From: Chiloscyllium plagiosum
Lineage: Eukaryota
DNA length: 26,700 bases
Direction of reading: 5' to 3'
Assembly (NCBI RefSeq): GCF_004010195.1
Contig: NC_057718.1
Location: forward strand, 76,774,129-76,800,828
Each line of letters begins with the position of its first letter. Within the stretch, counting starts at the first letter, position 1. This document shows positions 6,164 through 26,700 of the stretch, in pieces. Position numbers and translations under genes: made by a program. Under the pieces are notes generated by a model. It did not search any database, was not told where the DNA came from, and saw only the letters and a program-made list of their open reading frames with translations.

Positions 6164-6486
6164 GTATTACATTTTATATTACATTTTTTACATTACATTA
6201 CAGTGTGGAAACAGGCCCTTCTGCCCAACAAGTCCACACCGACCCGCCGAAGCGCAACCCACCCATACCCCTACATTTACCCCTATACCTAACACTACGG
6301 GCAATTTAGCATGGCCAATTCACCTGACCTGCACATCTTTGGACTGTGGGAGGAAACCGGAGCACCCGGAGGAAACCCACGCAGACACGGGGAGAACGTG
6401 CAAACTCCACAGTTAGTCGCCTGAGGCGGGAATTGAACCCGGGTCTCTGGCGCTGTGAGGCAACAGTGCTAACCACCGTGCCGCCC
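6164..6486 (-). mobile_element. HE1-type shark SINE (tRNA head, CR1-like tail)
   Basis: Minus strand GGGCGGCACGGTGGTTAGCACTG..GGGTTCAATTCCC, body GTGCGTGGGTTTCC-like, and (TAATG)n-like tail. Near-identical to the copies at 6839 and 22119. Confidence 0.92.
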
Positions 6487-6838
6487 ATACGGTGGTGCAG
6501 TGTACATGAGTTTACTTTCTTGCTACAATCAAATGTTTGCAGCTATCGGCCAAATAATACCTGCTATCCTTTTGTATAAACTGCATATTGGCTCATTTGC
6601 GTACCTATCTTTTCACTTTTCTAATTGCATTATGCTGTAAATGGGAATGAAATGAATATAGATGTTGCATCAACAACTATTAGACCTGCAAATACTTAAG
6701 CAGTAAAACTATATTAGTTAGGTATCTAGAGGAAAGGCAGTTCAGATTTAATTGATCATAAGAGATAAAATGTGAATTTATTCTGCAAGTCAGCCTGCTT
6801 AAAGTTACAGTTGGTTTTGCATTTTATACTTGAAGAGT

Positions 6839-7150
6839 GGGCGGCACGGTGGCACAGTGGTTAGCACTGCTGCCTCATAGCGCCTGAGACCCGGGTTCAA
6901 TTCCTGCCTCAGGTGACTGTGCAAACTCCACACAGTCATTCTCCCCGTGTCTGCGTGGGTTTCCCCCGGGTGCTCCGGTTTCCTCCCACAATCCAAAGAT
7001 GTGCAGGTCAGGTGAATTGGCCATGCTAAATTGCCCGTAGTGTTAGGTATAGGGGTAAATGGGGTGTGGGTGGGTTGCGCTTCGGAGGGTCGGTGTGGAC
7101 TTGTTGGGCCGAAGGGGCTGTTTCCACACTGTAATGTAATCTAATCTAAT
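6839..7150 (+). mobile_element. HE1-type shark SINE containing a 19-bp internal inversion
   Basis: A box TGGCACAGTGG, B box GGTTCAATTCC, 3' end gaaggggctgtttccacactgtaatgtaatctaatctaat. Confidence 0.92.
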
Positions 7151-12797: not shown

Positions 12798-13750
12798 TTA
12801 TATAAATGATTTGGATGTGAGCATAAGAGGTATAGTTAGTAAGTTAGCAGATGACACCAAAATTGGAGGTGTAGTGGACAATGAAGAAGGTTAACTCAGA
12901 GTACAACGGGATCTTGATCAGATGGGCCAATAGGCTGCGGAGTGGCAGATGGAGTTTCATTTAGATACATGTGAGGTGCTGCATTTTGGGAAAGCAAATC
13001 TTGGCAGGACTTATACACTTAATGGTAAAGTCCTAGGGAGTGTTGCTGAACAAAGACACCTTGGAGTGTAGGGTCATAGTTCCTTGAAAGCGGAGTAGCA
13101 GGTAGATAGGACAGTGAAGAAGGCATTTGGTATGCTTTCCTTTATTGGTTAGAGTATTGAGTACAGGAGTTGGGAGGTCATGTTGCGGCGGTACAGGACA
13201 TTGGTTAGGCCACTTGGAATATTGCATGTGGTTCTGGTCTCATTCCTATAGGAAAGATATTGTGAAACTTGTAAGGGTTCAGAAAAGATTTACAAGGATG
13301 TTGCCAGGGTTGGAGGATTTGAGCTATAGGGAGGTTATGGCTATTTTCCCTGGAGCGTTGGAAGCTGAGGGGTGATCTTATAGAGGTTTATAAAATCATG
13401 GGCATAGACAAGATAAATAAGCAAAGTCTTTTTCCTGGCGTAGGGAAGTCCAGAACTAAAGGGCATAGGTTTAGGGTGAGAGGGGAAATATACAAAAGAG
13501 ATCTAAGGGGCAATTTTTCATGCAAAGGGTGGTAAGCATATGAAATGAGCTGTCAGAGGAAATGGTGGAGGCTGGTACAATTGCAACATTTAAAAGGTAT
13601 TTGGATGGGTAAATGAACAGGAAGGGTTTGGAGGGCTATGAGCCAGGTGCTGGCAGGTGGGATTAGATTGGGTTAGGATATCTGATTGGCATGGATGAGT
13701 TGGACTGAAAGGTCTGTTTCCATGCTGTACATCTTAATGATTATAATTCT
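12798..13750 (+). mobile_element. 5'-truncated CR1-type LINE
   Basis: tatataaatgatttggat..aagttagcagatgacaccaaaattgga (YINDLD..KLADDTKIG), LEYCMWFWS..QKRFTRMLPGLE, and 3' end gaaaggtctgtttccatgctgtac. Confidence 0.92.
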
Positions 13751-17003: not shown

Positions 17004-17084
17004 ATGTCGGCAGAGGAAGACACGGAGTTGCGGGACTTACTGGTGCAAACCCTGGAGAATAGCGGCGTCCTCAACAAGATCAAG
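17004..17084 (+). CDS. CEP43: CEP43 (FGFR1OP/FOP, centrosomal protein 43) first coding exon, 81 bp
   Basis: aaaATG TCG GCA GAG... gives MSAEEDTELRDLLVQTLENSGVLNKIK, matching the FOP N-terminus (EEDTELRDLLVQTLENSGVLNRIK). Donor AAG|GTAATG. Exon 2 (AELRAAVFLAL...) was not found in the window. Confidence 0.95.
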
Positions 17085-21300: not shown

Positions 21301-21954
21301 TCTTTGAAAAACCATTTAGTGCAGGACCACGCCATTTGGCTGCTCAAAGGTTACTATGACATTTGGTAAGATTGATTTGATTGTGGCCTTTTTTCCACTT
21401 TCCTGCATGCGCCTAATATGCTTTAACATATTTGTTAACCAAGGATATAATCCGAACATTGGAATTAGGAGTGTAATGTGGTTGAGAAAGGAGATCTGGC
21501 TGTGAATAGTAAACTCTGCTAGATATCTAATTGATCACGAGAAGAGATACAAAAAAATAAAAGTGGTAAAAGAGTTAAATGCAAGTCTCCTTGGAGAGAA
21601 CTGCAAGATAGGAATTCCTGGAAGAAAAGTGTCTTTATTTTAAACACTGATTCATTTTCTTTTTTTTATTTCATCCTTATAGTATCTTTATTAAATGTTG
21701 ATGTCTACGTTTGACATCCATACGCTGGTGATAGGGTGTAAGTAGAAGCCTGATCCTATTATGATGCCACATTAAATATGATGGCTATAAGGGGGTGATT
21801 AGAATTTAGTCAAAGTGGTGAATTTTAAGAAGAATGAAACTCTGGATGAATGGGTTCAAAGAGGGGATTTTAAATTTGGGCCCTTGAAAGGTAGGATAAG
21901 AAGAGGGAAAGTTGCTCTAAAGATCAGTCAATGAAACAAAACTTTACAAAGAGT

Positions 21955-22811
21955 TATAGAGTCATAGAGATGTACAGCACGAAAATAGACCCTTTGGTCC
22001 AACCCCTGTCCATGCCGACCAGATATCCCAACCCAATGTAGTCCCACCTGCCGACCCATGTCCCTCCAAACTCTTCCTATACCCATCCGGATGCCTTTTC
22101 AATGTTGCAATTGTACTAGATTAGATTACATTACATTAGATTAGATTACATTATTTTTTTGTATCTCTTCTCGTGATCAATTAGATATCTAGCAGCGTGG
22201 AAACAGGCCCTTCGGCCCAACAAGTCCACACCGACCCGTCGAAGCGCAACCCACCCATACATTTACCCCTTACCTAACACTACGGGCAATTTAGCATGAC
22301 CAATTCACCTGACCTGCACATCTTTTGGACTGTGGGACGAAACCGGAGCACCCGAAGAAAACCCACGCAGACACTGGGAGAACGTGCAAACTCCACACAG
22401 TCAGTCACCTGAGGCGGGAATTAAACCTGGGTCTCGGGCGCTGTGAGGCAGCAGTGCTAACCACTGTGCCACCGTGCCGCCCATACTAGCCTCCACCACT
22501 TCCTCTGGCAGCTCATTCCATACACATGCCATCCTCTGTATGAAAAAGTTGCCCCTTAGGTCTCCTTTATATCTTTCCCCTCTCACCCTAAACCTATGCC
22601 CTCTAGTTCTGGACTCTCCCACCTCAGGGAAAAGACCTTGTCTATTTATCCTATCCATGCCCCTCATGATTTATTAAACCTCTAAAAGGTCATCCCTCGG
22701 CCTTCGATGGTCCAGGGAAAGCAGCCCCAACCTATTCAACCTCTTCCTATAGCTCAAATCCTCCAGGCCTGGCAACATCCTTGTAAATCGTTTTTGAACC
22801 CTTTCAAGTTT
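21955..22811 (-). mobile_element. CR1-type LINE 3' fragment interrupted by an HE1 SINE
   Basis: MRGMDRINRQGLFPEVGESRTRGHRFRVRGERYKGDLRGNFF..VWNELPEEVVEA. The LINE resumes at 22118 and below (caattgtactag). Tail tagagtcatagag. Confidence 0.92.
22119..22483 (-). mobile_element. HE1-type SINE nested in a CR1 LINE, with TSD and a templated insert
   Basis: TACTAG occurs on both sides (about 22113-22118 and 22484-22489). Full head, body and (TAATC/TAATG)n tail. Carries a foreign segment at 22151-22195. Confidence 0.93.
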
Positions 22812-22899: not shown

Positions 22900-23485
22900 A
22901 TGTAGGAGATGTGATGTCCTATTGCTGCTGTACACAACATTGGTTAGTCTACTTTTGCAATACTGTATTCAGTTCTGGTATCCCTGCTACAAAGATGTTA
23001 TGAATCTTTTCTAAACCCTTTCAAGTTTCACAAAGATGTTGCCAGGGTTGGAAGGTATGAGCTATAGGGAGAGACTAAATAGGCTTGAGCTATTTTCCTT
23101 GGAGAATGCGAGGTGACCTTAGGCACGTATAAAATCAAGCGGGGCATAGATAAGGTGAATAGTCAAGGTCTTTCCCCAGGATAGGGGAGTCCAAAACTAG
23201 AGTGCTTAAGTTTGAGCGGAGAGGGGAAAGATTTAAAAGGGACCTAAGGGGCAACGTTTTCATGCATAGAGTTGTGCGTGCATGGAATGAGCTGCCAGAG
23301 GAGGTGGTGGAGGCCGGTACAATTACAACATTTAAAAAGCATGTGGATGGGTACATGAATAGGAAGGGTTTAGAAGGATATCGGCCAAATGCTGGCAAAT
23401 GGAACTAGATTAATTTAGGATATCTGGTCGGTGCAGATACGTTCGACCGAATGGTCTGTTTTCAGCTGTACAACTCTATGACCCA
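22900..23485 (+). mobile_element. 5'-truncated CR1-type LINE with a 30-bp internal inversion
   Basis: RGERFKRDLRGNVFMHRVVRAWNELPEEVVEAGTITTFKKHVDGYMNRKGLEGYRPNAGKWN; tail gctgtacaactctatgac. Confidence 0.92.
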
Positions 23486-25183: not shown

Positions 25184-25479
25184 TTGGGAGCCTCCTGTGA
25201 AGCGCTTCTGTGATGTTCCCTTTGGCATTTATAGTGGTTTGTCTCTGCAGCTTCCGGTTGTCAGTTCTAGCTGTCCGCTGCAGTGGCCGGTATATTGGGT
25301 CCAGGTCGATGTGTTTGCTGATAGAATCTGTGGATGAGTGCCATGCCTCTAGGAATTCCCTGGCAGTTCTCTGTTTGGCTTGTCCTATAATACATTGAAG
25401 AGGTGTTCTTCTTCCTCTTTTTGCAGTCCTGGTGTGCTACAGTGTGTTGTGGCCCTTTTGAACAGTGTCTTGATGCAAC

Positions 25480-25488
25480 NNNNNNNNN
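25480..25488. other. Assembly gap (9 N)
   Basis: Run of n in the sequence. Confidence 1.
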
Positions 25489-26498
25489 AGTAGTCTGGCT
25501 GTCAGTTTGGAAATGTTCTTGATGTATGGTAACGTGGCTAGTCCTTTGGGTTGTGGCATATCCTCATTCCGTTGTCTTTCCCTTAGGCATCTGTTGATGA
25601 AATTGCGGGGGTATCTGTTTTTGGCGAATACATTGTAGAGGTGTTCTTCTTCCTCATTTTGCAGTTCTGGTGTGCTGCAGTGTGTTGTGGCTCTTTTGAA
25701 CAGTGTCTTGATGCAACTTCTTTTATGTGTGTTGGGGTGGTTGCATTCATAGTTCAGGACTTGGTCTGTGTGTGTGTGGTTTTTCTGTATACCTTTGTGG
25801 TGAATTCTCCGTTTGGTGCTCTCTGTACCATCACGTCTAGGAATGGGAGTTGGTTGTCCTTTTCTTCCTCTCTAGTGAATTTGATTCCTGAGTGTGGCAT
25901 TGATCTGGTGTGTGTTTTCTATTTCTGTAATTTTTAATGATTACAAAAGTGTCATCTACATATCTGACCCAGAGTTTGGGTTGAATTTGCGGTAAGACTG
26001 TTTGTTCTAATCTTTGTATTACAGCTTCTGCTATGAGTCCAGAGATGGGTGAGCCCACAGGTGTGCAGTTGATTTGTTCATCTATTTGGTTGTTGAATGT
26101 GAAGTGTGTTGTGAGGCACACGACCAGTAGTTTGAGTATGCAGTCTTTGTTGATAGGTTCACCGTCTTGTTGTCTGTTCTGTATGTCCAGCAGGTTGGCT
26201 ATTGTTTCTCTGGCTACGGTTTTGTCGATAGAGGTGAACAGTGCCATTAATGAGACCATAGTTTCTTCCTTGTCTATAGTATATTTCTGATGATGTCCAA
26301 GAATTCCTGTGTTGACACTGTTCAAAAGGGCCACAACACACTGCAGCACACCAGAACTGCAAAAAGAGGAAGAAGAACACCTCTACAATGTATTTGCCAA
26401 AAACGGATACCCCCGCAATTTCGTCAACGGATGCCTAAGGGAAAGACAACGGAATGAGGACATGCCACAACCAAAAGGACTAGCCACGTTCCCATACC

Positions 26499-26676
26499 TC
26501 TCAGCAGAGAGCGGCGCGAGCTGGGCAGAAGTGAGGTTGGAGCGCAGAGCTGGTCGGGAAGGTAAGTGATATATAAAGAACTTACCTCGACGCCAACGGT
26601 CTTTTCTCAGCAGAGAGCGGCGCGAGCTGGGTGGAAGTGAGGTTGGAGCGCAGAGTTGGTCGGGAAGGTAAGTGAT
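26499..26676 (+). repeat. Direct repeat, 2 x 72 bp with 106-bp period; probably the 5' UTR of a LINE extending beyond the window
   Basis: tctcagcagagagcggcgcgagctggg..gtcgggaaggtaagtgat at 26499-26570 and 26605-26676, few mismatches, CpG-rich. The LINE 5' UTR assignment is an inference. Confidence 0.8.
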
Positions 26677-26700
26677 TGATATTTGAGTGGGTGTGTTCTA

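Follow-up and report, generated by a model that had tools for sequence, protein, structure and literature searches.

An intron of a CEP43/FGFR1OP-like gene in the shark Chiloscyllium plagiosum carries a 45-base inverted copy of nearby intron sequence, set exactly between the tail and the body of a SINE. This copy is probably a microhomology-mediated DNA template-switch scar that was formed in the germ line after the SINE had been inserted. Coordinates refer to the window, which is the whole stretch of 26,700 nucleotides that was analyzed.

The inverted copy and its genomic setting

The following features of the window are relevant to the inverted copy.

17004-17084, + strand: exon 1, the first coding exon of the CEP43/FGFR1OP-like gene; intron 1 runs past the window end
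21516-21560, + strand: donor, single-copy intron sequence with 29% GC and an A-rich run at its end
21950-22119 and 22484-22811, - strand: older LINE 3' fragment, recognized by self-BLAST against the LINE copies at 13265-13750 and 23027-23482
22114-22119, + strand: target-site duplication, left copy, TACTAG, 6 bp
22120-22483, - strand: full-length SINE, which interrupts the older LINE 3' fragment
22120-22153, - strand: SINE tail of 5-bp repeats in a doubled variant that is shared by six other copies, with one base changed here
22151-22195, - strand: insert (inverted copy), the exact reverse complement of the donor
22193-22483, - strand: SINE body; its right end is the tRNA-type head, and its left end is the LINE-like 3' end
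22484-22489, + strand: target-site duplication, right copy, TACTAG, 6 bp

The insert at 22151-22195 matches the reverse complement of 21516-21560 at 45 of 45 positions, as an earlier note on this DNA had claimed, and 590 nt separate the two arms. In an exact pattern search of the whole genome (3,556,477,427 bases), the 45-mer had one forward and one reverse match, which bears out the earlier expectation of two loci only, whereas the reversed 45-mer used as a control had none. A genome search with a 301-bp query from the donor region likewise returned these two places alone. With two occurrences in 3.56 Gb, the 45-mer can be neither a chance match nor a member of a dispersed subfamily. The idea that it belongs to a dispersed SINE subfamily or another repeat, for which no supporting evidence was found, is refuted within this assembly and retains a negligible probability; the donor is, moreover, embedded in sequence that is common to two related organisms, B and C.

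The insert consists of 39 new nucleotides (22154-22192) together with TTA (22151-22153) and CAG (22193-22195), and both triplets are also found at the ends of the donor. There is consequently a 3-bp microhomology at each junction, and at the CAG end the match reaches five of six bases (CAG-x-GT). An uninterrupted tail-body junction was detected by exact pattern in 123 copies of the SINE, 30 of which were fetched, and in these sisters the TTA of the tail is joined directly to the CAG of the body. Because the sisters read through this junction without interruption, the 39 nt must have been inserted at the present locus, in agreement with the previous description of a 39-nt insert between TTA and CAG microhomologies. 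The insert has an identifiable nearby template and microhomology at both junctions, as templated insertions do. On the sense strand of the gene, its sequence contains a pyrimidine-rich run followed by CAG about 20 nt later and might loosely resemble a splice acceptor, with two earlier AGs between the pyrimidine run and the CAG of 22151-22195.

When the flanks of the SINE are rejoined across it, they match an uninterrupted LINE copy near 13560-13610. Box-like A and B motifs, read against the customary consensus, are located on the - strand at 22410-22483 and correspond to a tRNA-derived head, and the 3' end of a sister SINE is 74% identical to a LINE 3' end over 42 nt (family D6, in the window). 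An Rfam search of the window produced no match. The element, called HE1 in the earlier note, is a putative HE1/V-SINE. HE1 is listed in a table row as a V-SINE of sharks and rays with HER1 as its partner LINE, and shares with the present SINE a tRNA-type head, a 3' end held in common with a LINE, a short-repeat tail, and a very high copy number (PMC3747384).

The doubled form of the tail (counted at 2/41) is the same in six other copies (L167-L172), which points to a common source element, as judged from these sequences. As far as the junction, the present copy departs from these six at a single base. The doubling was therefore already part of the element, and the insert cost it no sequence; the earlier claim that no SINE sequence was lost is thus upheld. 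A doubled tail as part of the same complex event was also considered and is ruled out by the same six copies. Summed contig depth in the tail bin (22120-22170) was 2.78 million for organism B, 0.28-0.39 million for A, and 0.03 million for C. Tails of this type may thus be commoner in organism B, although summed contig depth is no copy number. Elsewhere in the window, two SINEs in opposite orientation (6164-6486 and 6838-7144) have arms that are separated by 542 nt and show 98% complementarity along 123 nt; this pair is located in an intron of a CDC50/TMEM30A-like gene.

With familiar short motifs, the next exon of the host gene was found at window coordinate 42660, and an exon with a FOP_dimer match lies further downstream on the + strand. 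The gene is presumably CEP43/FGFR1OP, a name that the FOP_dimer match supports; Pfam did not recognize the 28-aa first exon. The placement of exon 1, the exon at 42660, and the FOP_dimer exon indicates that the insert is situated in intron 1 of a gene on the + strand, where it had been placed before. In a predicted fold of the pre-mRNA, 44 of the 45 donor bases can pair with the insert. No exons lie between the arms and no effect is evident. The inverted copy is not expected to have a function, and no sign of one was seen. Two further repeat structures occur near the end of the window. A retroelement remnant at 25389-26500, which we assume to be Penelope-like, contains two repeats next to a run of nine N bases, one inverted (187 nt, 95%) and one direct (91 nt). 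At 26499-26681, a 77-nt GC-rich repeat is present twice, 106 nt apart and 94% identical, and adjoins a 3.9-kb N run that starts at the window end.

Age, recurrence and background rate

The SINE body differs from the majority sequence of its sisters by 10 substitutions over 289 sites and by two indels, with changes at 7 of 253 non-CpG and 3 of 36 CpG sites. Each of the 10 changes is common to at most 3 of 23 sisters. Divergence was tabulated for 23 of the 30 sisters, seven truncated or rearranged ones being left out, and beyond the fixed part the non-CpG divergence is 3.3% in the present copy vs. a mean of 2.4% in the 23 usable sisters. Between donor and insert, no differences were observed over 45 sites.

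Contigs of the related organisms B and C cover the donor region with a few differences (36 of 888 bases between the window and B, and 25 of 538 between the window and C). Among the listed rows of C's stretch, B and C agree against the window at at least 10 sites and B alone differs at at least 7, and organism C is likely the outgroup because of this pattern. One of the sites at which B and C agree, position 21555 inside the donor, has the base C in both related organisms and A in the window, and the insert carries the A form. With organism C as the most distant of the three, the A at 21555 likely arose after the split from B, and the inverted copy was likely made after that change, on a branch that is about 2% long.

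The evidence leans against equal ages of insert and SINE, through 0/45 vs. 10/289 differences and the shared derived base, with a likelihood ratio that ranges from 1.9 to 11.8. In a simple likelihood model, the ratio of a later to a co-insertional event was 11.8 when the SINE copy's own divergence was used and 3.7-5.3 once younger sisters and base composition lower the age of the SINE. Homogenization of the inverted arms with a probability of 0.05-0.2 gave 1.9-4.4, and occasional homogenization may thus bring the ratio down to about 2. These values constitute moderate evidence that the insert is younger than the SINE and favor a later event about 2- to 12-fold, although a dating from 45 sites only is weak. 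By eye, the sisters with doubled tails look younger, with about five changes each, and the SINE may for this reason post-date the split between A and B.

Recurrence was assessed at the same junction in other copies of the family. The canonical two bases precede the exact 33-bp body start in 47,627 copies, and both bases before CAG are non-canonical in 108. Of the latter, 100 were listed and examined with 1.5-2.5 kb of flank each, namely the CEP43-intron copy and 99 others. None of the 99 has a flank-derived inverted copy at the junction within 1.5-2.5 kb, and the longest inverted exact match that ends at the junction is 19 nt among them vs. 45 nt here; they represent tail variants, tail-less copies, and SINE-internal duplications. 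A survey for flank-copied tail-body inserts, which the earlier note had put forward as a check, accordingly yielded no second case, in a screen that is blind to inserts that end in a canonical base, lie elsewhere in the tail, have diverged, or came from farther away. The literature covered, which mostly excluded subscription journals, contained no flank copy between a SINE tail and body. Five SINE copies (L126, L151, L070, L139, and L143) contain a head-to-tail repeat of a body segment, with a restart at CAG and exact direct matches of 23-49 nt; these repeats, for which the search pattern selected, could be reverse transcriptase restarts or assembly errors.

To place the insert against a background, near-perfect inverted pairs within 3 kb were scanned over 846,382 bases, a non-random set made up mostly of SINE-centered sequence and the neighborhood of the window. 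Most of the 50 inverted pairs were repeat-derived and were not counted, and four low-copy candidates were tested genome-wide. Three of the four are true local copies, none of them at a SINE junction.

L031:1239-1401 and 2703-2865 (G000:C2): local inverted copy, 163 bp, 98%, arms 1.3 kb apart, sharp edges
L010:3964-4049 (G000:C9): local inverted copy, 86 bp, 98%, arms 41 nt apart
L013:5355-5426 (G000:C9): local inverted copy, 72 bp, exact, arms 56 nt apart

The 163-bp copy has no other full-length match in the genome; one of its arms ends about 95 bp from a SINE tail, not at the tail. The 86-bp and 72-bp copies lie 54-85 kb beyond the window start and look like short-range template-switch scars. 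Such short-range switches span a shorter distance than the 590 nt seen here. L010:8775-8928 was dropped as a local copy because it proved to be a dispersed repeat. At 2-4 events per 846 kb, 0.1-0.2 events would be expected at one given base over 47,735 SINE copies, and 1-2 events within 10 bases. This rate is rough, and only one of the three examples (1.3 kb) has a distance similar to that of the present copy, the other two being in the hairpin range (41-56 nt). An event at the boundary nevertheless needs no special mechanism, because a background of this size could place one there by chance.

Routes to the inverted copy

A later switch of DNA template could have produced the observed structure as follows. 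In the SINE tail, whose 5-bp repeats are AT-rich, a DNA 3' end would have stalled or broken, and 3-5 of its bases would have paired with sequence of opposite sense some 600 bases distant. Backward synthesis of about 40 bases by a DNA polymerase would have followed. The extended end would then have used the other 3-base match to pair again where it had departed, so that nothing was lost. If the event ran from left to right, a + strand end in TTA would have folded back onto its own strand; if it ran from right to left, a - strand end with five of six bases matching would have invaded the donor. The two directions, as well as the possible polymerases, predict the same sequence and cannot be told apart by it. 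We infer the timing, the DNA template, and the pathway of this event from the age gap between insert and SINE, the shared A at 21555, the non-recurrence at other junctions, and the background rate, which together favor a later event. Against it stands the location of the insert, which coincides with the boundary between tail and body. Reverse transcription starts there and is prone to slip, and the position therefore fits a reverse transcriptase event well.

Several known processes leave comparable scars. Inverted insertions flanked by microhomology in the human germ line (microhomology-mediated templated insertions of the MMBIR type, MMB-TI) fit the structure. In two people, "classical" MMB-TI of at least 25 bp accounted for 10 of 103 and 11 of 99 calls; most had microhomology at the junctions, and templates were sought within 100 bp (PMC8421209). 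As outlined there, MMB-TI shares with the present case an inverted nearby template of at least 25 bp, microhomology at two junctions, and a return to the point of departure. The present template, in contrast, is 590 nt away instead of within 100 bp, and the case comes from a shark and is known from an assembly, not from reads. The inverted copy thus appears to work like the MMB-TI class while falling outside its strict definition. The four-point template-switch model has the same geometry and includes a switch out, a reverse copy, a switch back, an AT-rich initiation site, and one resulting inverted repeat, all of which are shared here (PMC7954356).

A later templated insertion of the Pol-theta type had been named previously as an alternative; its timing agrees with the better reading, but the Pol-theta type fits less well. 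The inverse-repeat class of Pol-theta insertions shares with the present copy a microhomology of about 3 bp, an AT-rich tract, and a reverse-complement fold-back copy (PMC7165422). According to the same text, however, Pol-theta scars are 3-30 bp long, single tracts are rarely longer than 10 bp, and distal templates are rare, so that the short, break-proximal tracts of these TINS differ from the 39-45 nt copied here from 590 nt away (PMC7165422). Replicative template switching is a better fit than Pol-theta because of this single 39-45-nt tract from a distant template.

Formation during the integration of the SINE was considered with either DNA or RNA as the template. The anatomy and the strand logic of the earlier note are right, in that the + strand would have been the cDNA strand, with an insert templated by + strand sequence. 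The insert lies inside the target-site duplication TACTAG, as integration would require, and a later insert into the SINE would lie there as well. With a DNA template, the cDNA end that had copied the tail would have folded onto the resected + strand 590 nt upstream, where the LINE protein or a host polymerase would have lengthened it before its return to the SINE RNA. The position of the insert agrees with this route, being both enclosed by the target-site duplication and precisely on the border of tail and body. Precedents can be found in two studies, with templated or inverted local DNA at some de novo L1 insertions (PMC11702581) and flank-derived extra nucleotides that are common at zebrafish L2 (ZfL2) 5' junctions (PMC4245944). 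These share with the present insert the copying of local DNA inside the target-site duplication, but they arose at integration and occupy either the 5' junction or the reciprocal end of the DNA (PMC4245944; PMC11702581), whereas the present insert is near the 3' end and inside the element, at a point 34 nt along the cDNA, and seems younger than the SINE that contains it. The age gap, the shared derived base at 21555, and the absence of analogous cases among 99 junctions also argue against a co-insertional DNA template, and the polymerase would have had to resume on RNA at the very next base. This route is consequently regarded as unlikely.

The explanation previously preferred was a jump of the LINE reverse transcriptase onto nascent pre-mRNA. 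After some 34 nt of cDNA, a CR1/L2-type enzyme would have abandoned the SINE RNA for nascent CEP43 pre-mRNA, copied about 40 nt of it from a point 590 nt upstream of the target site, and then resumed on the SINE RNA at the next base. In favor of this route, the insert is the complement of the gene's sense strand. Switching of reverse transcriptase between RNAs has been proposed as an origin of L1 chimeras (PMC13174262), and template slippage has been linked to the repeat tails of L2-type elements (PMC3747384). All of the evidence against a co-insertional event applies here too, and the claim is not sustained by an insert that looks younger than the SINE (ratio of 1.9-11.8) and does not recur in 99 junctions. 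Moreover, the antisense orientation is a one-in-two outcome, a + strand DNA template gives the identical product, and nothing in the sequence requires RNA. The tail is a 5-bp repeat, not poly(A), and the A-rich run of the donor would therefore hardly be a special priming site. The survey offered no second case for a test of strand bias, and an out-and-back capture of the target gene's own transcript by a reverse transcriptase was not found in the literature covered. An RNA template is thus highly improbable, and a later switch of DNA template is still the preferred explanation.

The insert outside the assembly and its meaning

The insert could also be confined to the assembly, through a gap-filling or chimeric-read error, or to the sequenced individual as a private allele. 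Perfect identity between donor and insert would be expected in either case, and this explanation had the highest single likelihood for the identity (0.35). The assembly is in 101,977 pieces; locally, N makes up 14,025 of 226,700 bases. Parts of the region are present in eighteen public runs. In three of three contig sets from the same organism (X1, X4, and X15, which are three samples), the donor is found in one unbroken contig of 923-924 bp, which a retained insert should have split, and the X1 contigs, read whole, contain no junction record. Neither junction was seen in any independent contig or read, in tests that were weak. The contig sets show presence, not absence: the public contigs were simplified with SPAdes-like heuristics (PMC12424806), and such simplification could erase short links into high-copy repeats. 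An assembly error would also seem to need a pair of chimeric joints that overlap by 3 bp only and lead back to the neighboring base of an intact SINE. The closest N run lies at a distance of about 3.3 kb. On balance, an artifact or a private allele appears to be a minor possibility.

Other data from the runs carry no weight in either direction. Raw reads of the three same-label samples X19-X21, drawn at about 4/100 of each run (approximately 0.55x each), include none over 22139-22207, the donor, or the insert; 1.2-1.5 donor reads and 1.4-1.7 insert reads would be expected if the insert were fixed, and this result was not counted as evidence. Over the whole SINE, the contigs of each run comprise 145,000-178,000 records from paralogs. 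All four runs contain joints that bypass the insert (22153 to 22193) or the SINE (22113 to 22484), but these derive from other SINE copies and are uninformative for the locus.

If the RNA model were true, the insertion of a retroposon could capture a transcript of its target gene in cis and then resume, which would bear on the origin of composite SINEs, a question that one case cannot settle. On the best reading, the inverted copy is of little consequence: it represents one clean example of a known mutational scar, situated in an intron and formed over a range somewhat longer than that of the scars catalogued in humans.
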